NCBI RefSeq assembly: GCF_054482595.1
Contig: NZ_CM137008.1
Reading direction: 5' to 3' (one strand)
Length of the DNA: 64,000 nt
Shown here: one piece after another, positions 12,481-43,673 of the stretch
How positions within the stretch are numbered: the stretch's first letter is position 1
Layout of the letters: each line of letters opens with the position of its first letter
Notes under the pieces: generated by a model
The model's input: the letters and a program-made list of their open reading frames with translations, nothing else
Databases searched by the model: none
Told to the model about the DNA's origin: nothing
Made by a program: the position numbers and the translations under genes

Positions 12481-12519
12481 GCCAACCTTAAGAACTTAAG
12501 GTTGGCTTAATTTTGCTTT
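12481..12519 (+). terminator. rho-independent terminator downstream of adiC
   Basis: Perfect inverted repeat gccaaccttaag / cttaaggttggc followed by ttaattttgcttt. Confidence 0.75.
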
Positions 12520-12557
12520 GCGAGCATATGCGCACTTTGTTCGATGGAAACACCGTG

Positions 12558-14201
12558 ATGTTGAAGTGCCTACTAAAAAGACCCTCTTTGAATTTACTCG
12601 CCTGGCTATTGTTAGCCGCTTTTTATATCTCTATCTGCCTGAATATTGCCTTTTTTAAACAGGTGTTGCAGGCGCTGCCGCTGGACTCGCTGCATAACGT
12701 ACTGGTTTTCTTGTCGATGCCGGTCGTCGCCTTCAGCGTGATTAATATTGTCCTGACACTAAGCTCTTTCTTATGGCTTAATCGACCGCTGGCCTGCCTG
12801 TTTATTCTGGTTGGCGCGGCTGCACAATATTTCATAATGACTTACGGCATCGTCATCGACCGCTCGATGATTGCCAATATTATTGATACCACTCCGGCAG
12901 AAAGCTATGCGCTGATGACACCGCAAATGTTATTAACGCTGGGATTCAGCGGCGTGCTTGCTGCGCTGATTGCCTGCTGGATTAAAATCAAACCTGCCAC
13001 CTCGCGTCTGCGCAGTGTTCTTTTCCGTGGAGCCAATATTCTGGTTTCTGTACTGCTGATTTTGCTGGTCGCCGCACTATTTTATAAAGACTACGCCTCG
13101 TTGTTCCGCAACAACAAAGAGCTGGTGAAGTCCTTAAGCCCCTCTAACAGCATTGTTGCCAGCTGGTCATGGTACTCCCATCAGCGACTGGCAAATCTGC
13201 CGCTGGTGCGAATTGGTGAAGACGCGCACCGCAACCCGTTAATGCAGAACGAAAAACGTAAAAATTTGACCATCCTGATTGTCGGCGAAACCTCGCGGGC
13301 GGAGAACTTCTCCCTCAACGGCTACCCGCGTGAAACTAACCCGCGGTTGGCGAAAGATAACGTGGTCTATTTCCCTAATACCGCATCTTGCGGCACGGCA
13401 ACGGCAGTTTCAGTACCGTGCATGTTCTCGGATATGCCGCGTGAGCATTACAAAGAAGAGCTGGCACAGCACCAGGAAGGCGTGCTGGATATCATTCAGC
13501 GAGCGGGCATCAACGTGCTGTGGAATGACAACGATGGTGGCTGTAAAGGTGCCTGCGACCGCGTGCCTCACCAGAACGTCACCGCGCTGAATCTGCCTGG
13601 TCAGTGCATCAACGGCGAATGCTATGACGAAGTGCTGTTCCACGGGCTGGAAGAGTACATCAATAACCTGCAGGGTGATGGCGTGATTGTCTTACACACC
13701 ATCGGCAGCCACGGTCCGACCTATTACAACCGCTATCCGCCGCAGTTCAGGAAATTTACCCCAACCTGCGACACCAATGAGATCCAGACCTGTACCAAAG
13801 AGCAACTGGTGAACACTTACGACAACACGCTGGTTTACGTCGACTATATTGTTGATAAAGCGATTAATCTGCTGAAAGAACATCAGGATAAATTTACCAC
13901 CAGCCTGGTTTATCTTTCTGACCACGGTGAATCGTTAGGTGAAAATGGCATCTATCTGCACGGTCTGCCTTATGCCATCGCCCCGGATAGCCAAAAACAG
14001 GTGCCGATGCTGCTGTGGCTGTCGGAGGATTATCAAAAACGGTATCAGGTTGACCAGAACTGCCTGCAAAAACAGGCGCAAACGCAACACTATTCACAAG
14101 ACAATTTATTCTCCACGCTATTGGGATTAACTGGCGTTGAGACGAAGTATTACCAGGCTGCGGATGATATTCTGCAAACTTGCAGGAGAGTGAGTGAATG
14201 A
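12558..14201 (+). CDS. eptA: lipid A phosphoethanolamine transferase
   Basis: 547 aa from internal ATG ([18 protein letters not shown]...); N-terminal TM segments plus sulfatase-like domain; overlaps basR start. Confidence 0.9.
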
Positions 14202-31962: not shown

Positions 31963-32519
31963 TGACGGGAAAACTGATTTGGTTAATGGGGCCGTCCGGC
32001 TCCGGGAAAGATAGCCTGCTGGCGGAACTCCGCCTGCGGGAACAAACTCAGTTACTGGTGGCGCATCGCTACATCACGCGCGACGCCAGCGCTGGAAGCG
32101 AAAACCATATCGCCCTGAGCGAGCAGGAGTTTTTTACCCGCGCGGGGCAAAACCTACTGGCCTTAAGCTGGCACGCTAACGGTCTGTATTATGGCGTCGG
32201 CGTCGAGATCGACCTCTGGCTGCACGCCGGATTCGACGTGCTGGTCAACGGCTCACGCGCCCATCTGCCGCAGGCGCGGGCGCGCTATGCATCGGCGCTG
32301 CTGCCCATCTGCTTACAGGTGTCGCCGGAGATCCTGCGCCAGCGCCTGGAAAACCGTGGTCGTGAAAACGCCAGTGAAATTAACGCCCGGCTGGCGCGCG
32401 CTGCCCGCTATACTCCACAGGATTGCCATACGCTCAATAATGACGGCAGCCTGCGCCAGTCGGTCGACACGCTGCTGACGCTGATTCATCAGAAGGAGAA
32501 ACACCATGCCTGCTTGTGA
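31962..32519 (+). CDS. phnN: ribose 1,5-bisphosphate phosphokinase PhnN
   Basis: 185 aa; P-loop GPSGSGKDS; 1-bp overlap with phnM stop. Confidence 0.9.
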
Positions 32520-32940
32520 GCTTCGCCCGGCCACGCAGTACGACACCGACGCGGTTTACGCGCTGATTTGTGAGCTAAAACAGGCGGAGTTTGACCATCA
32601 CGCGTTTCGCGTGGGCTTTAACGCCAACCTGCGTGACCCAAACATGCGCTACCATCTGGCGCTGCTGGATGGCGAAGTTGTTGGCATGATCGGCCTGCAT
32701 TTGCAGTTTCATCTGCATCATGTCAACTGGATCGGCGAAATTCAGGAGCTGGTGGTGATGCCGCAGGCGCGCGGTCTGAACGTCGGCAGTAAGTTACTGG
32801 CGTGGGCAGAAGAAGAAGCCCGCCAGGCCGGGGCCGAAATGACCGAGCTTTCCACCAACGTGAAGCGCCACGACGCGCACCGTTTCTATCTGCGCGAAGG
32901 CTACGAGCAGAGCCATTTCCGCTTCACCAAGGCGCTGTAA
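32506..32940 (+). CDS. phnO: aminoalkylphosphonate N-acetyltransferase PhnO
   Basis: 144 aa GNAT-type; overlaps phnN 3' end. Confidence 0.88.
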
Positions 32941-32941
32941 C

Positions 32942-33700
32942 ATGAGCCTGACCCTCACGCTCACGGGCACCGGCGGCGCACAGGGCGTTCCGGCATGGGG
33001 CTGCGAGTGCGCGGCCTGCGCACGAGCGCGACGCTCGCCGCAGTATCGCCGCCAGCCGTGCAGCGGCGTAGTGAAGTTTAACGAGGCTGTCACCCTGATC
33101 GACGCCGGGCTGCACGATCTCACCGATCGCTGGTCGCCAGGATCGTTCCAGCAGTTTTTGCTGACGCATTATCATATGGATCACGTTCAGGGACTGTTTC
33201 CGCTGCGCTGGGGCGTGGGCGATTCGATCCCGGTCTACGGCCCGCCGGATGAACAGGGCTGCGACGATCTGTTTAAACATCCGGGCCTGCTTGATTTCAG
33301 CCACACGGTGGAACCGTTTGTGGTGTTCGATTTGCAGGGGTTGCAGGTGACACCGCTGCCGCTAAACCACTCAAAACTGACCTTCGGTTATCTGCTGGAA
33401 ACGGCACACAGCCGGGTGGCGTGGCTGTCTGACACCGCAGGCCTGCCGGAAAAAACGCTGAAATTTTTACACAATAATCAGCTACAGGTAATGGTGATTG
33501 ATTGCAGCCACCCGCCGCGCGAGGATGCACCGCGTAATCACTGTGATTTAAATACCGTGCTTGCGCTGAATCAGGTTATCCGCTCGCCACGGGTGATTCT
33601 GACCCATATCAGCCACCAGTTTGATGCGTGGCTGATGGAGAACGCGCTGCCGTCAGGGTTTGAGGCGGGGTTTGATGGGATGGAGATTGGGGTGGCGTGA
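32942..33700 (+). CDS. phnP: metallo-beta-lactamase-fold phosphodiesterase PhnP
   Basis: 252 aa; HxHxDH motif ([10 protein letters not shown]). Confidence 0.9.
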
Positions 33701-33732
33701 TGGGGGAGAATGTGCGCGCTGATGCCCTCATC

Positions 33733-33820
33733 CCGGCCCTCTCCCACAGGGAGAGGGAGAAAATCACCCCGTGCACCATCGGTCCCCTCGCCCCTTTGGG
33801 GAGAGGGTTAGGGTGAGGGG
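33733..33820. repeat. GC-rich palindromic intergenic element (family uncertain, possibly Box C-like)
   Basis: ccctctccc-aca-gggagaggg followed by cccctcgcccctttggggagagggttagggtgagggg between convergent phnP and yjdP. Confidence 0.5.
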
Positions 33821-33843
33821 CGATGCCAGCACCCGAGCCTACC

Positions 33844-34173
33844 TCACCGCCCATACTCATCTTCCATTCTCCGCTCTTCATCCTCCAGTTGCCGACGCTC
33901 CTGATCAAGCTGACGTTGGCGATCGTCCAGCTGCCTGCGGCGATCTTCAAACTGGCGGCGGCGGTCGTCATATTGTCTGCGCCGATCGTCGCTCACTTCA
34001 CGCTGCCAGCCGTCGTCGCGCGAATCTTCATAATCTCGCCCACGGTCAGGGTTATAAGCATCGTTAATCGCCTGCTGAATATTGCCAATGGTGTCGTCGA
34101 TAATATCGGCCTGGGCCGGTACGGTGGTCAGCGTGAGCAGGGTGAAAAAAAAGAGCGTGGAGTGGCGTTTCAT
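33844..34173 (-). CDS. yjdP: small secreted low-complexity protein YjdP
   Basis: 109 aa; N-terminal signal peptide; C-terminal DDRRRQ/ERRQ repeats; convergent with phnP as in K-12. Confidence 0.75.
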   Translation of the reverse strand: MKRHSTLFFFTLLTLTTVPAQADIIDDTIGNIQQAINDAYNPDRGRDYEDSRDDGWQREVSDDRRRQYDDRRRQFEDRRRQLDDRQRQLDQERRQLEDEERRMEDEYGR

Positions 34174-34241
34174 AAACTCGGCCTCGCAACAAAGTTAATA
34201 CAAGGTAGGCAAAGGTGCCTGTTACGAGTAGAGGAGGATTC

Positions 34242-36503
34242 TCAATTCTCTTGCCCCAGCGCCTGCGCCAACTGCGCACGGGTAAAGGGTTTGCGCAACA
34301 GCGCCACGTCTGGCAGCGCGGGGTTATGGCTGGGGCGTAAATCCTGACCGCTGATGAGTAGCAGCGTCAGGTGCGGGTAAAGTTTGCGGGCCGCATTGAC
34401 CACTTCTGCGCCGCTCATGCCGCCGGGGAGCATTAAATCGCTGATAAAAATATCGATTTCTGCTGATGCCGCCAGCAGATCCAGCGCCTGTTCGCCGCTG
34501 CTTGCTTCCAGCGTCAAATAGCCCAGCAGGTGCAACTGTTCGCAGATGGTCTGGCGCACCGCGGCTTCATCTTCCAGCACTAACACCAGTTTATCGCCGC
34601 TGACAGAAGCCTGTTCTACTGCCGCTGGCGATAGGTTTTTCGCCGCCGTCAGCGCGCGGGGAAGCTGTAATCTGACCGTTGTCCCCTGCCCCGGCGCGCT
34701 TTCAATTTCAACGCGCCCACCGGACTGGCGCACAAAACCATAGACCATCGACAAACCCAGCCCGCTGCCGCTGCCCGTCTGTTTGGTGGTAAAGAATGGC
34801 TCAAATACCTGGCTTTTCACCGCCTGCGACATACCGCTGCCATGATCGATGACCTCCAGTGCCACCATGTCCTGACGCTGCCCACTGCTGCGAGTAACGC
34901 GCTGATTCCAGGTACGAATTTTGATGATTCCCGTCTGCCCTTCCATCGCGTCACGGGCGTTCATCACCAGGTTGATGATGGCATTTTCCAGTTGGCTGAC
35001 GTCAATCCACGCGGGCCACGCCGGAGACTGCGCTTCAATCTCCAGCGCCAGCGTTGCCGGTAAGGAGTGGCGCATTAATTCGCTTAACTCTTCCAGCAAT
35101 GTTTTCAGTTCAACGGCTTGCGGATGTAAGGACTGCTTGCGGGAAAACGCCAGCAGTCGTTGTGTCAGTAGCGCCCCACGTTCGGCAGCTTGCAGCGCCC
35201 GCTGTATTCGCGGCGCGTCTGGCGAGTCCGGATTCACCAGCTCCAGGCTGCCAATAATCACCGCCAGCAGATTATTAAAATCATGGGCCAGCCCGCCCGT
35301 CAGTTGCCCGACCGCTTTCAGTTTCTGGCTGTGTAATAGCGCCTCTTCCAACCCCTGCCGCTCAGTTTGGGCAATCTCCATCTGCGTGGTCTTCTCTTTT
35401 AGCAGCCGTGAGGTTCGTTCGAGTGACTCGGTATTGCGGGCAAAAACGTTAAAGGCGCGCGCCAGTTCACCCAACTCATCACGCCGCTGTAACGCCGGAA
35501 AAGTGACGTCCGCTTCGCCGTACGCCAGGCGGCTCATGGCGCGGGAAATCGCCGTCAGGTTAGTGCCGAGGTTGCGATAGATATACCAGCCGGCAAACGC
35601 GGTGATCACCACCGCTAACAGGGCGAAAATCATGATCACCCTCTCGCCGGAGCGCAAATCCTGGTAACTTTGCGCCACGCGCTGACCGGAGAGCGTCGCC
35701 ACCTGTTCGGCGTAACGGTTGATGTCGCCATTGAGGATCGCCACCAGCGCTTTGATGTGAAACATATACCAGCTGATTGCCAGATCGCTTTGCTCCAGAG
35801 CGGCAGAAAGCGGCGCGAGTTTACGCATTTCATCATTGAAATCATTGAGTAACGTATTAACCAATGGCATATCGCTGTGGGTCGGCAACGCAGACATTAC
35901 CCCGACCAGTTGATGAATAATCGCCTGCGGCGCGGGGGTGGCAATAGCGGCAACAATCAGTCGGTTCATCTCGTTAAGCAAAATATCATCTTGCGCGTGA
36001 GTGACTTTTTGCAGATGCCGCAGATAACTTAAGTTTTGATACAGCGAACTTAACAGCGCGTTGCGCTCCAGATGCCGCCTTTGCCCGCGCTCCAGCATAC
36101 CGCCGACGCTGGTTTGCAGTTCGTTGCTACGCGTGATGATTCGCGTCACCAGCCCGGCTTCCTGCTGCGCTAAAGGCGCGTTCGCCAGTTGTGCAAGCGA
36201 GCTTTTTAATGCCCGCTGTGTCTCCTGCAACCGCTCGGCTTCGCCTTTATATTCCAGCGCTCCCACCACCTGCGACAATCGCACCGCCGCCGTTGCCACG
36301 TTTGCCGTGTCGCGCGCCAGATTCAGGCTGCCGGTCATATCATCCACCGTTTGCTGCTGCACCAGCTCCTGCATCTGGCTGGCATGACGAAAGCCCATTA
36401 CCGCCACGCCGCTGACCATCAACGTCACCGCCACCACCAGCAAATTCAAAAGCAGCAATCGCCCGCGCGCGCTGGCAAAAAAATGACGTCCGGGGTGCGC
36501 CAT
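34242..36503 (-). CDS. hybrid sensor histidine kinase (periplasmic sensor, HAMP, HisKA, HATPase, C-terminal receiver; no HPt domain)
   Basis: ~753 aa from ATG at 36503 (MAHPGRHFF...) with GGAG 8 nt upstream; two TM segments flank a ~300 aa periplasmic region; H-box GGLAHDFNNLL; G-boxes DHGSGM / GSGLGLSMV; receiver with ISDLMLPGG; protein ends ~25 aa after the receiver. Confidence 0.85.
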   Translation of the reverse strand: MAHPGRHFFASARGRLLLLNLLVVAVTLMVSGVAVMGFRHASQMQELVQQQTVDDMTGSLNLARDTANVATAAVRLSQVVGALEYKGEAERLQETQRALKSSLAQLANAPLAQQEAGLVTRIITRSNELQTSVGGMLERGQRRHLERNALLSSLYQNLSYLRHLQKVTHAQDDILLNEMNRLIVAAIATPAPQAIIHQLVGVMSALPTHSDMPLVNTLLNDFNDEMRKLAPLSAALEQSDLAISWYMFHIKALVAILNGDINRYAEQVATLSGQRVAQSYQDLRSGERVIMIFALLAVVITAFAGWYIYRNLGTNLTAISRAMSRLAYGEADVTFPALQRRDELGELARAFNVFARNTESLERTSRLLKEKTTQMEIAQTERQGLEEALLHSQKLKAVGQLTGGLAHDFNNLLAVIIGSLELVNPDSPDAPRIQRALQAAERGALLTQRLLAFSRKQSLHPQAVELKTLLEELSELMRHSLPATLALEIEAQSPAWPAWIDVSQLENAIINLVMNARDAMEGQTGIIKIRTWNQRVTRSSGQRQDMVALEVIDHGSGMSQAVKSQVFEPFFTTKQTGSGSGLGLSMVYGFVRQSGGRVEIESAPGQGTTVRLQLPRALTAAKNLSPAAVEQASVSGDKLVLVLEDEAAVRQTICEQLHLLGYLTLEASSGEQALDLLAASAEIDIFISDLMLPGGMSGAEVVNAARKLYPHLTLLLISGQDLRPSHNPALPDVALLRKPFTRAQLAQALGQEN

Positions 36504-36616
36504 ATCACGCTCCGTGAAGAAAAATCGCAATATGACAAATATGAACGGCTTCTGACATTTTGCATTTACTTTCCTGTGATGGAGTGCTGATATCGACAAC
36601 CTCGCAGGAGTCCACC
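36504..36616. promoter_or_regulatory. divergent promoter region between the sensor kinase gene and the ABC transporter operon
   Basis: 113-bp AT-rich spacer between divergent start codons; direct repeats tgacaaatatgaa (36533-36545) and tgacattttgcat (36553-36565) spaced 20 bp apart. Confidence 0.5.
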
Positions 36617-38137
36617 ATGAACAGCACGCCAGTTCTGGAGATGCGCAATATTGCCAAAGCCTTCGGCAAATTTTATGCACTCAAAGGGGTGGATTTGACG
36701 GTCTACCCTGGCGAGATCCATGCCCTGATGGGGGAAAACGGCGCGGGAAAAAGCACGCTGATGAAGGTGCTGGCGGGGGCGTATACCGCCACCAGCGGCG
36801 AGATCCTCATAGACGGCAAGCCCTTTCACATTCGCACGCCAAAAGATGCCTTAAGCGCCGGTATTACGCTGATTTATCAGGAGATGCAGCTGGCACCGAA
36901 TCTGTCGGTGGCAGAAAATATTTTTCTCGGCAGCGAGCTTTCCCACGGCGGGCTGGTGCAGCGTAAAGAGATGCTAGTGCAGGCGCAAAAAGTGATCGAC
37001 CGCCTCGGCGCGCAGTTTAACGCCAGCGATAAGGTCATGACGCTGACCATTGCCGAGCAACAGCAGGTCGAAATCGCCCGCGCACTACATCGCAACAGCC
37101 GCATTCTGGTGATGGACGAACCCACCGCTGCCCTCTCCTCCCGTGAAACTCACCGTCTGTTTGAACTGATTATGCGGCTGCGCGATGAAGGGATGGCGAT
37201 TATCTACATCAGCCACCGTATGGCGGAAGTGTATGAGCTTTCCGATCGCGTCAGCGTGCTGCGCGACGGGCAATACGTTGGCAGCCTGACCCGCGATAAC
37301 CTCAATGCCGGGGAGCTGGTGCGGATGATGGTCGGCAGGCCACTGAGCGATCTGTTCAATAAAGAGCGCGATATCCCGCTCGGTAAAGCCCGCCTGAATG
37401 TTCACCACCTGACCGACGGCGGCAAAGTCCAGCCGAGTAGCCTGCTGGTGCGTTCCGGCGAAATTGTTGGCCTCGCCGGACTGGTGGGTGCCGGACGTTC
37501 CGAACTGGCGCAGTTGATCTTCGGCGTGCGGAAAGCGACAGGCGGAATGATTGAAGTCGATGGTGAACCGGTGGTGATCCACTCCCCGCGCGAAGCCATC
37601 GATCTTGGCATTGGTTTTCTCACCGAAAACCGCAAAGAACAAGGCTTATTCCTTGAAATGGCAGCAGCCGAAAACATCACCATGGCAACCCTGGAGCGCG
37701 ATGCCCGCTGGGGAATGCTCAATCGCAAAAAAGCGCAAACCATTTCCGATGACGCCATTAAGTTGCTCAACATTCGCGTGCCTCACGCCCAGGTACGCGC
37801 GGGCGGGCTTTCCGGCGGCAATCAGCAAAAACTGTTGATCTCCCGCTGGGTGGCGATTGGCCCGCGCATTTTACTGCTCGATGAACCCACCCGCGGCGTG
37901 GACGTTGGCGCCAAAAGCGAGATCTACCGGATCATGAACGAGATGGCGCGCAAGGGCGTGGCGATCCTGATGATCTCCAGCGAACTGCCGGAGATAGTGG
38001 GAATGAGCGATCGCGTCTATGTGATGCGCGAAGGCAGCATTGCCGGTGAGTTAAACGGCAAAAACATCACCCAGGAAAACATTATGACCTTAGCGACTGG
38101 CGTCAACGACGCCCATTCCCAGGCGGTAACCTCATGA
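36617..38137 (+). CDS. sugar ABC transporter ATP-binding protein, tandem ABC domains (RbsA/CUT2-type)
   Basis: 506 aa from ATG at 36617 ([16 protein letters not shown]...) preceded by aggag; two Walker A motifs ([18 protein letters not shown]) and two signature motifs (LSGGNQQK in the second half). Confidence 0.88.
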
Positions 38138-39108
38138 CGACCTCTGCAAAAACCTCTGCCAAAAAAATGCTGATGAGCGATCTGATGCAAACGGTCGGCA
38201 TCTTGCCCATTTTGATTCTGATCGTGGCGGTATTTGGCTTTATCGCGCCAAACTTTTTTACCGAAAGCAACCTGCTGAATATTACCCGCCAGGCATCGAT
38301 CAACATTGTTCTGGCGGCGGGGATGACCTTCATCATTTTGACCGGCGGGATCGATCTTTCCGTGGGTTCGATCCTCGGCACCACAGCGGTGGCGGCGATG
38401 GTCGTCTCCCTTAGCCCTGAGTTCGCCATGCTGTCGATCCCGGCAGCGCTGATGCTCGGCCTGCTGCTGGGGCTGTTCAACGGCGCGCTGGTGGCCTTTG
38501 CCGGATTGCCACCGTTTATCGTCACGCTTGGCACCTATACGGCGCTGCGCGGGGCGGCGTATCTGCTGGCGGACGGCACCACGGTTATCAACTCCAACAT
38601 TAATTTCGAGTGGATAGGCAATAACTATCTCGGGCCGGTCCCGTGGCTGGTGGTGATTGCCCTCGCAGTGATTGTGCTGTGCTGGTTTATTCTGCGCCGC
38701 ACCACGCTTGGCGTTCATATCTACGCCGTCGGCGGCAATATGCAGGCGGCGCGTCTTACCGGCATTAAGGTCTGGCTGGTGCTGCTGTTTGTTTATGGTA
38801 TGAGCGGCCTGCTTTCTGGGCTTGGCGGGATTATGAGCGCCTCACGGCTGTACAGCGCCAACGGCAACTTAGGCATGGGTTACGAACTGGATGCCATTGC
38901 AGCGGTGATCCTCGGCGGCACCAGTTTTGTCGGCGGCATCGGCACCATCACCGGCACGCTGGTCGGCGCGCTAATTATCGCCACGCTCAACAATGGCATG
39001 ACCTTAATGGGCGTCTCTTACTTCTGGCAACTGGTGATCAAAGGGGCGGTGATCATCATTGCGGTGCTGATCGACAAATACCGTACCCGACACCATCAAA
39101 GTGCATAA
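38134..39108 (+). CDS. sugar ABC transporter permease (RbsC-like)
   Basis: 324 aa polytopic membrane protein; 4-bp ATGA overlap with the ATPase gene. Confidence 0.85.
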
Positions 39109-39126
39109 ACACATGAGGAATACAGC

Positions 39127-40068
39127 ATGAGATTGAAGCCCTTAGTGACCGCGCTCTATGCAGGCGCGCTGCTGACCGCAGCACCGTTCGCCCAGGCGAA
39201 AGAACTGAAATCGATAGGCGTAACGGTGGGCGATCTGGCGAACCCGTTCTTCGTGCAGATCACCAAAGGCGCGGAGCTGGAAGCACGCAAACTGGCAGGC
39301 GATAACGTCAAAGTGACGCTGGTTTCCAGCGGCTACGATCTGGGTCAGCAGGTGTCGCAGATAGACAACTTTATCGCCGCTAACGTCGATATGATTATCC
39401 TCAACGCTGCCGATTCAAAAGGGATCGGCCCAGCGGTGAAACGGGCGAAAGATGCCGGGATCGTAGTCGTCGCGGTTGACGTAGCGGCAGAAGGTGCTGA
39501 TGCCACCATCACCTCCGATAACACCCAGGCGGGCGAAATGGCCTGTAAATACATCACCGATCGCCTGAAAGGCAAAGGCAATGTGGTGATCATCAACGGC
39601 CCGCCGGTATCCGCCGTGCAAAACCGCGTCGAAGGATGCCAGACTGAATTTAAACGCCATCCTGACATCAAAGTGCTCTCTGACAACCAGAACGCGAAAG
39701 GCAGTCGTGAAGGCGGGCTGGAGGTAATGACGGGACTGCTGGCGGCAAATCCGAAGATCGACGGCGTATTTGCGATTAACGATCCCACCGCAATCGGTGC
39801 CGATCTGGCAGCAAAACAGGCGCAACGTAACGAGTTCTTTATTGTTGGTGTGGACGGAAGCCCGGACGCCGAAGAGGCGCTCAAGCGTGAGAACTCGTTG
39901 TTTGTCGCTACTCCGGCGCAAGATCCCCAGGTGATGGCAGCGAAAGCGGTGGAAATTGGCTACGACATTTTGCAGGGCAAACCTGCGCCGAAAGAGCCGG
40001 TGCTGATCCCGGTGACGATGATCGATAAAAACAACGTCGGCAATTACAAAGGCTGGACGGTGAAATAA
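39127..40068 (+). CDS. periplasmic sugar-binding protein (type I PBP, RbsB-like)
   Basis: 313 aa; signal peptide MRLKPLVTALYAGALLTAAPFAQA; RBS gagga upstream. Confidence 0.85.
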   Translation: MRLKPLVTALYAGALLTAAPFAQAKELKSIGVTVGDLANPFFVQITKGAELEARKLAGDNVKVTLVSSGYDLGQQVSQIDNFIAANVDMIILNAADSKGIGPAVKRAKDAGIVVVAVDVAAEGADATITSDNTQAGEMACKYITDRLKGKGNVVIINGPPVSAVQNRVEGCQTEFKRHPDIKVLSDNQNAKGSREGGLEVMTGLLAANPKIDGVFAINDPTAIGADLAAKQAQRNEFFIVGVDGSPDAEEALKRENSLFVATPAQDPQVMAAKAVEIGYDILQGKPAPKEPVLIPVTMIDKNNVGNYKGWTVK

Positions 40069-40122
40069 GTCCACACGCCGGGCGGCGCAGCTGCCCGGTC
40101 ACCGCTAAGGAGAACGCTTTCG

Positions 40123-40806
40123 ATGAAACGCTCCGCTATAAACGACATTCTCGGCCATACACGGCAATTCTTTTCGCAACATGACGTACATCTGCCGCCC
40201 TTTGCCAGTTTCTCGCCTGCTCAATGGCAGCAGCTCGACACCGCCGCGTGGGAGGAGGTTTTTGATCTTAAACTCGGCTGGGATGTTACCGCTTTTGGTC
40301 GCAACAACTTTGCAGCACACGGGCTGACGCTGTTTACCCTACGTAACGGCTCAGCAAAAGGAATGCCGTATGTGAAATGTTACGCCGAGAAGATCATGCA
40401 TGTGCGCGATGCGCAGGTCACGCCAATGCATTTTCACTGGCGTAAGCGTGAGGACATTATCAATCGCGGCGGCGGTAATTTAATTGTTGAACTGTGGAAT
40501 GCCGATAGTAACGAGCAAACGGCTGATAGTGACATTACGGTGGTGATCGACGGCTGCCGCCAGAAACATACTGCAGGCACTCAGTTGCGCCTGTCTCCCG
40601 GCGAAAGTATCTGCCTGCCGCCCGGCCTGTATCACAGCTTTTGGGCGGAAACCGGCTTTGGCGATGTTCTGGTTGGCGAAGTCTCTTCTGTCAATGACGA
40701 CGACCACGATAACCACTTTTTACAGCCACTGGACCGCTACAACCTGATTGACGAAGACGAACCTGCACAGTTGGTATTGTGTAACGAATACCGCCAGTTC
40801 CGCTGA
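40123..40806 (+). CDS. cupin-fold sugar isomerase, D-lyxose/D-mannose isomerase-like
   Basis: 227 aa; RBS aaggag; His-rich metal-site region (VTPMHFHWRKRE); length and context match my recollection of the characterised pathogenic E. coli D-lyxose isomerase family (not verified by search). Confidence 0.7.
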   Translation: MKRSAINDILGHTRQFFSQHDVHLPPFASFSPAQWQQLDTAAWEEVFDLKLGWDVTAFGRNNFAAHGLTLFTLRNGSAKGMPYVKCYAEKIMHVRDAQVTPMHFHWRKREDIINRGGGNLIVELWNADSNEQTADSDITVVIDGCRQKHTAGTQLRLSPGESICLPPGLYHSFWAETGFGDVLVGEVSSVNDDDHDNHFLQPLDRYNLIDEDEPAQLVLCNEYRQFR

Positions 40807-40820
40807 ATAAGGATAACGTT

Positions 40821-41681
40821 ATGCCATTGATTTCTCTCGCTGAAGGGCTGGCACATGCCCGCGAACATCACTATTCGTTAGGTGCGTTTAATGTGCTGGA
40901 CTCGCACTTTTTACGCGCCTTGTTTGCTGCTGCCAGACAAGAACGTTCGCCCTTTATTATCAACATTGCCGAAGTACATTTTAAATATATCTCGCTGGAT
41001 TCCCTGGTCGAGACAGTGAAATTTGAAGCGGCGCGTCATGCCATTCCGGTGGTGTTAAATCTCGATCACGGACTGCATTTTGAATCGGTGGTGCAAGCGT
41101 TGCGGCTGGGATTCAGCTCGGTAATGTTTGATGGCTCCACGCTGGGGTATGAAGAAAATGTCCGCCAGACGCGGGAAGTGGTGAAAATGTGCCATGCCGT
41201 TGGCGTATCGGTAGAAGCTGAACTGGGCGCGGTGGGTGGCGACGAAGGCGGTGCACTCTATGGCCATGCCGATGAATCCCTGTTTACCGATCCGCAACTG
41301 GCGCGTGATTTTGTCGACCGTACCGGCATTGACGCGTTGGCCGTGGCGATTGGCAATGCACACGGCAAATATCGCGGCGAACCGAAACTCGATTTCCCGC
41401 GCCTCGACGCTATCCGCCAGCAGGCTGCTATCCCGCTGGTATTACACGGCGGCTCAGGGATTAGCGATGCCGATTTCCGCCGCGCCATCGAACTGGGTAT
41501 CCACAAAATCAATTTCTACACTGGCATGTCGCAAGCGGCGCTGGCTGCCGTTGAGGCCCGAATGGCGTACCGTCAGCCGATGTATGACGAGTTTGCCGAG
41601 TTACTGCTGGCAGTGGAAGCCGCCATCAGCGATACGGTTGCACAACAGATGCGTATTTTTGGCAGTGCGGGGCAGGCATGA
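40821..41681 (+). CDS. class II ketose-bisphosphate aldolase family protein (GatY/KbaY/FbaA-like)
   Basis: 286 aa; alignable by eye with GatY (NLDHG, SVMFDGS, SVEAELG, ALAVAIGNAHG, LVLHGGSG motifs). Confidence 0.8.
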   Translation: MPLISLAEGLAHAREHHYSLGAFNVLDSHFLRALFAAARQERSPFIINIAEVHFKYISLDSLVETVKFEAARHAIPVVLNLDHGLHFESVVQALRLGFSSVMFDGSTLGYEENVRQTREVVKMCHAVGVSVEAELGAVGGDEGGALYGHADESLFTDPQLARDFVDRTGIDALAVAIGNAHGKYRGEPKLDFPRLDAIRQQAAIPLVLHGGSGISDADFRRAIELGIHKINFYTGMSQAALAAVEARMAYRQPMYDEFAELLLAVEAAISDTVAQQMRIFGSAGQA

Positions 41682-42679
41682 TGGAGCGTAAAGGAATTAT
41701 CGCCGCAGGCAATATGTTGGTTGACCACGTCCATCAGATTATCCAGTGGCCAGAGCGCGGCTGGCTGGCGGAGATCACCCACAGCGAACGCTCCACCGGC
41801 GGTGCGCCGCTTAACGTCCTGCTGACGCTGGCGAAAATGCGCACCGGGCTGCCGTTACAGGCGGTTGGGCTAATCGGTCAGGACAGCGACGGCGATTACA
41901 TCATGGCGATGCTTGAGCAATATCACGTCAATCGTCAGCATGTGCAGCGCACTACCTTTGCCCCGACGTCGATGTCGCAGGTGATGACAGACCCAAGCGG
42001 GCAGCGGACGTTTTTCCATTCGCCGGGTGCAAACAGACTTTTGGATCTTCCGGCGTTCGATCAGCTCGATAACACCATGAAGATTTTCCATCTCGGCTAT
42101 TTACTGTTGCTCGACAGCCTGGATATGCCGGACGATGTTTACGGCACCCGTAGCGCACGCCTGCTGGCGCAAATGCGTGATACTGGCTTTGAAACCTCAC
42201 TCGACCTGGTCTCCCGTAAGGGCGATCCGCGTTATCAGCCGCTGGTGCTGTCCGCGTTGCGCCATCTGGATTATCTGGTAATTAACGAACTGGAGGCCGG
42301 GGAGTTTAGCGGGCTGGAAATTCGGTTACCCAACGGCGAACCGCATATCGCGCATATTGCTGCCGCCGCGCGTGAACTGTTAGATGCGGGCGTGCGCCAG
42401 CGGGTGGTGATCCACTGCCCGGAAGGGGCGTGGGGAGAGACCCCAGAACAGGGCGGCGTGTGGATCCCTTCGCAAAAGTTAGAACAACGGGAAATTATCG
42501 GCAGCGTCGGCGCGGGCGATGCATTTTGTGCCGGATTTTTATATGGCTGCCATGAACGCTGGACGCTTACCGAGAGCATCAAACTGGCACACGCCTGCGC
42601 GCGGGCAAGCCTGTTATGCGCCAATGCCATCGACGGGGCGAAAACGCTGGAAGAGCTGCAAACAGAAATGTCGGATTAA
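41678..42679 (+). CDS. pfkB/ribokinase-family sugar kinase
   Basis: 333 aa; C-terminal GAGDAF motif (GSVGAGDAFCAGFLYG); 4-bp overlap with the aldolase gene. Confidence 0.8.
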   Translation: MMERKGIIAAGNMLVDHVHQIIQWPERGWLAEITHSERSTGGAPLNVLLTLAKMRTGLPLQAVGLIGQDSDGDYIMAMLEQYHVNRQHVQRTTFAPTSMSQVMTDPSGQRTFFHSPGANRLLDLPAFDQLDNTMKIFHLGYLLLLDSLDMPDDVYGTRSARLLAQMRDTGFETSLDLVSRKGDPRYQPLVLSALRHLDYLVINELEAGEFSGLEIRLPNGEPHIAHIAAAARELLDAGVRQRVVIHCPEGAWGETPEQGGVWIPSQKLEQREIIGSVGAGDAFCAGFLYGCHERWTLTESIKLAHACARASLLCANAIDGAKTLEELQTEMSD

Positions 42680-43383
42680 TGCACGTCGGCAGCGAAGACA
42701 TACCCCAGACCGCGCAGAGTTTTAATCAACATCGGCTGATGCGGGTTGAGTTCGATTTTGCGTCGTAAGCGCATGATTAATACGTCGATGGTGCGATCAA
42801 ACACCTCCACGCTGTCGCTGTGGGTGAACGCCAGCAACTGCTCGCGGCTCAATACCCGACGCGCGTTTTGCGCCAGAGCCAGTAACAAGCCATATTCGCC
42901 CTGAGTTAACTCGACATGTTGCTGAAGCGGATTGTGCAACTGGCAGCGCATGGTATCGAGATACCAGCCATTGAATGACAGCCCGGCGCTTTTCTCGTCA
43001 TTAACCGCCAGCGCACCAACCCGTCGCAACACCGCTTTCAGTCGTGCGACCACCACCCGCGGGGTGAACGGTTTGCAGATGTAATCATCCGCGCCCATTT
43101 CCAGCCCGACCACCACATCAGACTCACTGCCCATGCCGGTCAACATCACCACCGGCAATGTCGGACGCAGTTTCTGGATTTGCTGCAATACCCTCAGGCC
43201 GTTGGTATCGGGTAGCATCATATCCAGCACCACCAGCGCAATGTCAGGATCGCCCTCAATACGCAATATGGCCTCCTGTCCGGTATGGCAGACTGAAACC
43301 GTAAAGACATGTTCACTTAACACGTCCTGCAACAGTGCGCAGATAGCCGTGTCATCATCCACCACCAGCACGACGGGTTTCAT
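42676..43383 (-). CDS. OmpR/PhoB-family response regulator
   Basis: 235 aa from ATG at 43383 (MKPVVLVVDDD...) with GGAG upstream; the track ORF starts 6 codons earlier at 43401; receiver plus winged-helix (LRGLGYVF); 3' end overlaps the kinase gene stop convergently. Confidence 0.85.
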   Translation of the reverse strand: MKPVVLVVDDDTAICALLQDVLSEHVFTVSVCHTGQEAILRIEGDPDIALVVLDMMLPDTNGLRVLQQIQKLRPTLPVVMLTGMGSESDVVVGLEMGADDYICKPFTPRVVVARLKAVLRRVGALAVNDEKSAGLSFNGWYLDTMRCQLHNPLQQHVELTQGEYGLLLALAQNARRVLSREQLLAFTHSDSVEVFDRTIDVLIMRLRRKIELNPHQPMLIKTLRGLGYVFAADVH

Positions 43384-43673
43384 GGTTACACTCCGCATCA
43401 TTCATCTGATTAATCATTGTGCGTACTTCTTGTCGAAGTGAAAGCTGAAAGTAATATAAATAATAAAAATATAAGTCAGGTCACATTATTGATGATAGTA
43501 ATAAATATGCCGTACTTTTCCCTCTTCAGCACAAATGCCTAATAAAATGGATCGTTCCGCTCACACTTCCACTTATTAAAGTCGCAATTTCCCAATTATG
43601 ATAACGCCAGCTTTAAATGACGTATTTTGCATGGATTACATATTTACGACATAAATGATAAATGGAGATTTAT

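Follow-up and report, generated by a model that had tools for sequence, protein, structure and literature searches.

By its sequence, the kinase gene that we analyzed is lmvK/rbfS of OI-167, a sugar-use island of E. coli. It lies at 34242..36503 on the minus strand of the window, the 64,000-nucleotide stretch of contig NZ_CM137008.1 (assembly GCF_054482595.1) under study, and encodes a hybrid sensor histidine kinase of 753 amino acids without an HPt domain. We lean, with moderate confidence in the explanation as a whole, towards a LmvK that would pass phosphate directly to its regulator as VirA does, with its fused receiver acting as a gate or sink and a binding protein possibly contributing to the input.

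The open reading frame starts from an ATG, and in an identical genome RefSeq places a gene at the same coordinates, under the product name 'hybrid sensor histidine kinase/response regulator'. The product matches EDL933 WP_000940958 (Z5692/EDL5436) at 748 of 756 amino acids (99%) with a single 3-aa indel: the EDL933/O157 protein carries a tandem duplication of FND in its periplasmic domain that is missing from the window copy, and the two differ at five further residues. The regulator is identical to EDL933 Z5684/EDL5428 over all 235 amino acids (100%). Kinase, regulator, island, flanks and LmvR box are the same as in the LmvKR/RbfSR system of E. coli O157:H7 EDL933 (OI-167; Z5692/Z5684, EDL5436/EDL5428), whose kinase was named RbfS by Liu 2022 (PNAS) and LmvK by Yang 2023 (mBio). 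The system is therefore not new: it is published, its hybrid architecture was described by Yang 2023, and the HPt gap is already in the literature, where the model figure of the same study shows 'an unknown Hpt'. The genome that hosts the window copy is not that of an O157 strain. A local GC of 55–62% in the window had hinted at Klebsiella or Enterobacter, a reading we rejected because 9.8 kb match E. coli chromosomes at 100% identity; the window is likewise 100% identical to urine isolate XH990 and to poultry isolates.

In the identical genome and in EDL933 alike, the island sits between yjdP and yjcS, where it replaces the allose operon, with lmuXYZIAK between the kinase and regulator genes; the description by Yang 2023 agrees with the order yjdP, island, yjcS. 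All six lmu genes are on the plus strand: lmuX (36617..38137), a sugar ABC transporter ATPase (RefSeq; NCBIfam AraG/XylG/RbsA-like matches); lmuY (38134..39108), an ABC transporter permease (RefSeq, NCBIfam); lmuZ (39127..40068), an RbsB-type periplasmic binding protein (NCBIfam RbsB, E = 1e-43) and a candidate signaling partner of the kinase; lmuI (40123..40806), a D-lyxose/D-mannose isomerase (Z5688; NCBIfam equivalog NF051472, 438 against a cutoff of 350); lmuA (40821..41681), a ketose 1,6-bisphosphate aldolase (NCBIfam NF005284, 575 against a cutoff of 406); and lmuK (41678..42679), a PfkB-family sugar kinase (RefSeq, NCBIfam) with reported fructose kinase activity (Yang 2023). The regulator gene lmvR/rbfR (42676..43383, minus strand) encodes an OmpR/PhoB-family response regulator of 235 amino acids with its acceptor at D54, and its best NCBIfam match is OmpR, with VirG second. 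The OmpR-family protein with which the kinase had been predicted to be paired is its experimentally confirmed partner, but the two genes are not adjacent; they lie 6.2 kb apart, on either side of the six-gene sugar operon.

The 113-bp divergent intergenic region between lmvK and lmuX contains an LmvR binding site at 36530..36544 (plus strand), a direct repeat ATATGA-N3-ATATGA upstream of lmuX. The motif was derived from DNase I footprinting (Yang 2023), and this is its single exact match in the window, against 0 in 100 shuffles. A scan for promoters and terminators around the kinase gene found none above shuffle expectation. The island also occurs in non-EHEC E. coli, in other Escherichia species and in Citrobacter, a wider distribution that weakens the published claim of EHEC-specific acquisition.

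All kinase domains are encoded on the minus strand. From the N-terminus, the protein consists of a first TM helix (36393..36464, ~residues 14–37; peak of 2.53 in a 19-residue Kyte-Doolittle window), a periplasmic sensor domain (35646..36392, ~residues 38–286), a second TM helix (35577..35645, ~residues 287–309; hydropathy peak 2.39), a HAMP domain (35430..35579, residues 309–358; Pfam PF00672, E = 2.7e-07), a HisKA/DHp domain (35130..35309, residues 399–458; PF00512), HATPase_c (34656..35003, residues 501–616; PF02518, E = 2.1e-21) and the fused receiver (34257..34586, residues 640–749; PF00072, E = 1.9e-10). The catalytic residues are in place: H407 (H410 in EDL933) in the H-box LAHDFNNLL, and E644-D645, D689 (D692 in EDL933), S718 and K738 in the receiver. 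With a phospho-acceptor His in HisKA, HATPase_c and an acceptor Asp in the receiver, the protein is a hybrid histidine kinase. Pfam and hydropathy upheld the predicted order of two TM helices, HAMP, HisKA, HATPase and receiver, while two lengths needed correction: the periplasmic domain spans ~250 rather than ~300 residues, and the chain ends 4 residues past the Pfam receiver model (15 past the conserved Lys) rather than ~25 past the receiver. The claim that no room is left there for an HPt held. No Pfam match to Hpt (PF01627) was found in the 753-aa kinase even at E ≤ 10, and the protein lacks a C-terminal HPt of the TorS/ArcB/BarA/EvgS type.

The sensor domain had no match in Pfam, and a profile search against the PDB returned just designed coiled coils and similar noise. 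Because sequence searches of the PDB were uninformative, we took the fold from structure prediction. The AlphaFold2 model (mean pLDDT 90.5) is helical throughout, and its top Foldseek matches in the PDB were the periplasmic region of PilJ, the TorS sensor domain, TorS-TorT complexes and the ligand-binding domain of McpS. Against TorS 3i9y the match (E = 8e-4, TM 0.64/0.70) places the domain in the fold of the TorS periplasmic region, although PilJ and McpS are equally good matches, so that it identifies the fold class only. The model thus predicts an all-helical double four-helix bundle of the TorS/McpS (HBM) type.

Could an HPt have been lost, or be hidden? A truncated TorS-type kinase, deprived of its HPt by a frameshift, a sequencing error or a recent deletion, would suit the sensor fold and the TorS-like label (43% similarity) given to the kinase by Liu 2022. 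The gene, however, has the same length and the same stop codon in all 410 complete E. coli genomes with a copy, the Citrobacter homologues are of similar length (750–754 aa), and the gene is functional in vivo in published work. The conserved gene yjdP begins only 68 nt downstream of the TGA, and all three frames close soon after that stop, so the downstream check proposed with the original prediction turned up no hidden, frameshifted HPt. The kinase core is also nearer to those of CckA and VirA than to that of TorS, and the end point is shared by 18 distant relatives, a comparison that refutes truncation; we regard it as highly improbable. We think it equally improbable that a cryptic HPt lies in the helical N-terminal region or in the linker between HAMP and DHp. 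HPt domains are helical bundles, and so is the N-terminal domain, but the latter is flanked by the two TM helices and hence periplasmic, and in fold it corresponds to the ligand-binding domains of PilJ, TorS and McpS. The linker is only ~40 residues long, because the PAS domain that relatives have at this point is deleted in LmvK. The search at E ≤ 10 revealed nothing in these regions or in the C-terminal tail, the places where a cryptic HPt was to be sought.

All 18 receiver-bearing relatives (29–63% identity) end 14–51 residues past the receiver Lys, which leaves no space for an HPt; the absence of the domain is thus ancestral and stable. H407 is invariant in 20 family members, DHp helix 1 is nearly invariant, and E-D, D689, S/T and K738 are kept in 18 of 19 relatives; the set contains seven orthologous triplets. 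Such family-wide conservation of the receiver's catalytic residues is as expected for a domain that is truly phosphorylated, and fits a relay and a sink alike. Some relatives are longer (~860–890 aa), and we considered whether they carry an HPt; their ~100 extra residues turned out to form a PAS_7 domain that separates HAMP from DHp, and the C-termini fall at the same place.

Of eight genomic contexts of family members, on compositionally diverse contigs (41–59% GC), none has an Hpt gene (PF01627) at a distance of 10 kb or less. An orthologous OmpR-type regulator (39–73% identity) is next to the kinase wherever the contig reaches far enough; the two genes touch or overlap in L010, L012 and L014, and in L009 they belong to one operon. 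Binding proteins encoded within the kinase-regulator operons of distant relatives are 40–50% identical to LmuZ, whereas the transporter binding proteins beside them are only 28–31% identical. By this measure LmuZ is the ortholog of the operon-encoded proteins.

Four characterized systems bear on how such a kinase might be wired. VirA/VirG of Agrobacterium tumefaciens, with ChvE, has several features in common with LmvK: a membrane-bound hybrid kinase that has a periplasmic domain, the same type of H-box and a receiver at its C-terminus but lacks an HPt; an OmpR-family partner phosphorylated by direct His-to-Asp transfer in vitro; and the involvement or proximity of an ABC transporter's sugar-binding protein. 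VirA phosphorylates VirG directly, and its receiver has a modulating role (Wise and Binns 2016). LmvK is nevertheless not a member of the VirA-like model NCBIfam NF010411 (218.9 bits against a cutoff of 647; E = 1e-64); the match covers residues 376–750, that is, kinase and receiver only. Where VirA has a GAF-like linker, LmvK has HAMP, and its sensor fold is TorS/HBM-like. TorS/TorR/TorT of E. coli and Vibrio shares the double four-helix-bundle sensor, the HAMP-kinase-receiver order, the OmpR-family regulator and, in the LmvK relatives, a torT-like arrangement in which the gene of an RbsB-fold binding protein accompanies that of the kinase. TorS, however, uses its own HPt in a four-step relay, the LmvK core is of the CckA/FixL/VirA H-box type, and LmvK scores far below the cutoffs of the TorS models TIGR02956 (137 bits against 676.5) and NF008543 (81 against 982).

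CckA of the CckA-ChpT-CtrA system (Caulobacter, Brucella) has the closest characterized kinase core and receiver and is likewise a hybrid kinase without an HPt; its DHp-CA structure, 5idj, is the closest solved relative of the LmvK core (E = 3e-40). LmvK reaches only 300.7 and 246.3 bits against cutoffs of 1000 for the CckA models NCBIfam NF046020 and NF046026, and the sensor modules differ. CckA requires the separate phosphotransferase ChpT, whereas no additional phosphotransferase gene accompanies the LmvK family in the eight contexts. RcsC, in the E. coli core genome, is another hybrid kinase that has a fused receiver but lacks its own HPt, and works through RcsD (established, and restated in Yang 2023). 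Unlike LmvK, it has a dedicated HPt protein encoded alongside and a FixJ/NarL-type regulator, and the sequence similarity of the two is confined to the receiver (2ayx, E = 1e-5). To call the wiring of LmvK unusual for E. coli, as the original prediction did, was an overstatement: RcsC was absent from its comparison with TorS, ArcB, BarA and EvgS.

Published experiments establish that LmvK autophosphorylates, that H410A abolishes function (Yang 2023), that kinase H410 and regulator D54 are both required in vivo, and that the regulator binds the lmuX and ler promoters. The reported signals are mannose/lyxose and riboflavin, and riboflavin stimulates the purified kinase by itself in vitro. Liu 2022 observed that the purified kinase phosphorylated the purified regulator directly in vitro, with no HPt present; the regulator was in 10-fold excess and the main text gives neither a time course nor the construct, which leaves room for slow, non-physiological transfer. 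No receiver mutant (D689/D692) of LmvK is reported in the literature on the system.

The two wirings offered by the original prediction, direct transfer, in which the receiver serves as a phosphate sink or modulator, and the use of an HPt from elsewhere, turned out to be the two positions in this literature, of Liu 2022 and Yang 2023, respectively. We consider direct transfer from H407 to LmvR D54, with no obligatory relay step through the receiver, somewhat the more probable, because of the in vitro transfer, the HPt-free relatives, the absence of a nearby Hpt gene, the VirA-like match and the VirA precedent. Phosphate would then pass as from VirA to VirG, and the fused receiver (D689) would act as an intramolecular competitor or gate that sets a threshold, or would recruit the regulator. 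Against this wiring, CckA uses its receiver in a relay via ChpT, and Yang 2023 favor an unknown Hpt.

The corresponding four-step phosphorelay would run from H407 to D689, then to an HPt elsewhere (RcsD, ArcB, BarA, EvgS, TorS, or a non-canonical ChpT/Spo0B-like protein) and finally to LmvR D54. It would account for the complete set of catalytic residues in the receiver, and both the reliance of CckA on a separate phosphotransferase and the split relay from RcsC to RcsD in E. coli provide precedents. Other E. coli serotypes and C. rodentium are expected to carry the core HPt domains. In published work, the system remained functional after transfer into these hosts, as a borrowed HPt would allow. 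A horizontally mobile module would, however, be expected to transfer poorly if it needed an HPt from its host, and the family module travels without an Hpt gene in all eight contexts. Together with the HPt-free transfer in vitro and with VirA, the same architecture working without a relay, this makes a borrowed HPt rather unlikely in our view.

The signal would be received by the periplasmic double four-helix bundle, and the input would probably come at least partly via sugar-loaded LmuZ, as in TorT-TorS and ChvE-VirA. We favor such an input because of the TorS-sensor/McpS fold and the orthology of LmuZ to binding proteins of kinase operons; the stimulation of purified kinase by riboflavin speaks against a binding protein being indispensable for that ligand. 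A more speculative extension, which we put forward tentatively and think may well not hold, is that LmvK, LmuZ and LmvR form a three-component unit. The bundle would read ligand-loaded LmuZ instead of, or besides, free ligand; the E. coli/Citrobacter lineage would have merged the 'sensor' binding protein with that of the transporter and lost the cytoplasmic PAS domain; and phosphate would go directly to LmvR under a VirA-like receiver gate.

In E. coli O157:H7 the system couples type III secretion to the sensing of sugars and vitamins, a link already published. Whether the receiver is a relay, a sink or a gate is a point on which the two published papers differ by implication, and the roles of the receiver and LmuZ bear on the signaling model of the EHEC virulence switch. 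VirA-style wiring, if true, would provide a second, genetically tractable example. A three-component unit, if real, would change the view of how mannose and riboflavin signals are perceived, and would define a widespread HPt-free class of sugar-sensing systems in which a hybrid kinase works with a binding protein and a regulator.

The kinase gene, lmvK (also rbfS), occupies 34242-36503 (-) and encodes 753 aa from an ATG start; the RefSeq coordinates match in an identical genome. Pfam placed HAMP at residues 309-358, HisKA at 399-458, HATPase_c at 501-616 and Response_reg at 640-749. Hydropathy gave two transmembrane segments, at residues ~14-37 and ~287-309, and a periplasmic domain of ~250 aa rather than the ~300 residues originally predicted. 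The phospho-acceptor histidine, H407, lies within LAHDFNNLL, and the receiver residues are all present (E644-D645, D689, S718 and K738). Even with the cutoff relaxed to E ≤ 10, Pfam gave no Hpt match for the 753-aa protein, which ends 4 residues past the receiver model, in agreement with the original prediction of a hybrid kinase with a fused receiver and no HPt. A frameshift truncating a longer ORF had also been raised. We found none: 3' of the stop all frames soon close and the conserved yjdP starts 68 nt on, which excludes a frameshifted HPt. Neither a truncation artefact nor a cryptic HPt domain remains as an explanation. An 812-aa version of the kinase starting at a GTG at 36680 (extension 36504-36680), taken from a mechanical ORF list, would overlap the start of lmuX; the 753-aa ATG start is the one in RefSeq, and the N-termini of every family member agree with it.

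The kinase gene belongs to an island (33700-43500) with the order yjdP, kinase, ABC ATPase, permease, binding protein, D-lyxose/D-mannose isomerase, aldolase, PfkB kinase, regulator and yjcS, the same as in O157:H7 EDL933. The local GC of the window, 55-62%, hinted at an origin outside E. coli; this was ruled out by 100% identity to several E. coli chromosomes over the 9.8-kb island. Kinase and regulator match their EDL933 counterparts at 748/756 and 235/235 residues, respectively. The island is OI-167, and two papers have already described its two-component system. Liu et al. 2022 (PMC9860305) named it RbfS/RbfR (Z5692/Z5684) and reported riboflavin sensing and activation of ler; Yang et al. 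2023 (PMC10128022) named it LmvK/LmvR (EDL5436/EDL5428), a system controlling the LEE and the lyxose/mannose operon lmuKAIZYX. In the EDL933 kinase, 9 nt of the periplasmic sensor domain are duplicated in tandem (FND-FND); the window copy lacks this duplication (~35835, residue 224). The EDL933 copy also has five substitutions, one of them in HAMP (Y328H in EDL933). Nearby, phnO is intact in the window (32506-32940) and frameshifted by annotation in EDL933 (12506-12941 of that locus).

Against both papers, the island is not EHEC-specific. Among 5,426 complete E. coli genomes, 410 carry it. Copies 100% identical to the window come from human urine isolate XH990, APEC37, and chicken and chicken-meat isolates, and identity falls to 93-98% in copies from fresh water, poultry meat, guinea fowl and goat. 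E. ruysiae, E. marmotae, cryptic Escherichia clades and Shigella boydii encode near-identical proteins, and those of Citrobacter are 82% identical.

The predicted pairing with an OmpR-family regulator held in kind. The two genes are not adjacent: LmvR (42676-43383, -), whose best NCBIfam matches are OmpR and VirG, lies across six sugar-utilisation genes from the kinase. Its operator at lmuX, ATATGA-N3-ATATGA as defined by Yang et al. 2023 (PMC10128022), has a single exact occurrence in the window (36530-36544), within the 113 bp (36504-36616) that separate the divergent kinase and lmuX genes. Because this site precedes the opposite-strand lmvK start codon by just 26 nt, LmvR binding that activates lmuX could influence lmvK transcription too. 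The papers are at odds on kinase gene induction (3-fold with riboflavin in Liu 2022, PMC9860305; none with mannose in Yang 2023, PMC10128022), and their binding motifs differ, a 21-bp motif at ler in the former and ATATGA-N3-ATATGA at lmuX in the latter.

AlphaFold2 modelled residues 36-290 as a double four-helix bundle (mean pLDDT 90.5), and the best PDB matches of the model were the PilJ periplasmic region, the TorS sensor domain (alone and with TorT) and the McpS ligand-binding domain. In McpS this fold binds a small ligand directly; in TorS-TorT it docks a binding protein. In three distant loci an RbsB-fold binding-protein gene sits within the kinase-regulator operon (L009 6879-7856, L010 7490-8419, L012 4009-4938), and a neighbouring, separate ABC transporter has its own binding protein. 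E. coli LmuZ (39127-40068) shares 40-50% identity with the operon-encoded proteins versus 28-31% with the transporter ones, so that kinase, LmuZ-type binding protein and regulator form the conserved unit. LmuZ is the ortholog of the orphan binding proteins of kinase-regulator operons and not of those of adjacent ABC transporters. Across the same loci LmuZ-type proteins are 79-88% conserved, versus 37-63% for the kinases. The conserved unit suggests signalling via a binding protein, which neither paper considered. Such a partner being obligatory is countered by the report that purified kinase alone is stimulated by riboflavin (Liu et al. 2022, PMC9860305); the main text of that paper does not state the content of its heterologous-transfer plasmid.

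A search with the N-terminal sensor and HAMP against 1.84 billion representative proteins returned 19 full-length relatives (29-63% identity). Eighteen have a complete receiver, with C-termini 14-51 residues past the conserved Lys and no space for an HPt. In 17 of the 19, including one 63% identical, ~100 extra residues between HAMP and DHp form a PAS_7 domain, which the Escherichia/Citrobacter kinase has lost by a clean in-frame deletion that left a short coiled-coil linker (35310-35429, residues 359-398).

Liu 2022 called the kinase TorS-like (43% similarity; PMC9860305). We found the DHp-CA core nearest to CckA (5idj, E = 3e-40) and FixL, with NCBIfam scores, all well under membership cutoffs, of 300 bits for CckA, 219 for a VirA-like model covering kinase and receiver, and 137 for TorS. 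Sequence searches thus group the core (residues 372-617) with CckA, FixL and VirA (H-box HDFNNLL), and the likeness of the kinase to TorS is limited to the periplasmic fold. VirA is a hybrid kinase without HPt that takes sugar input via the binding protein ChvE and transfers directly to VirG in vitro, its receiver modulating rather than relaying (Wise and Binns 2016, PMC4705274). CckA points the other way, with a receiver that feeds ChpT. An HPt relay also has an E. coli counterpart in RcsC, a core hybrid kinase that lacks its own HPt and uses RcsD, an established point that Yang et al. 2023 (PMC10128022) restate; the original prediction overlooked it in calling either wiring unusual for E. 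coli. Yang et al. 2023 presented LmvK as a hybrid kinase and named H410 and D692 (H407 and D689 here), found function lost in kinase H410A and regulator D54Q mutants, and drew LmvK as working "via an unknown Hpt" (PMC10128022).

In eight genomic contexts (contigs of 41-59% GC), no PF01627 gene lies within 10 kb of the kinase. An orthologous OmpR-type regulator (39-73% identity) adjoins the kinase wherever the contig is long enough; in three of the distant loci the two genes abut or overlap, and in the fourth they share an operon. Purified kinase autophosphorylates and passes phosphate to purified regulator without other protein, at a kinase:regulator ratio of 1:10 (Liu et al. 2022, PMC9860305). 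That paper does not mention the fused receiver; a 2024 review lists a REC domain. With somewhat better than even confidence, we favour direct transfer of the VirA type, the receiver acting as gate or sink. Relay through a core-genome HPt, the main rival, seems to us less likely. The original observation stands and its interpretation is partly supported: direct transfer and a borrowed HPt are both positions already in print (Liu 2022, Yang 2023). The kinase finding itself is already known.
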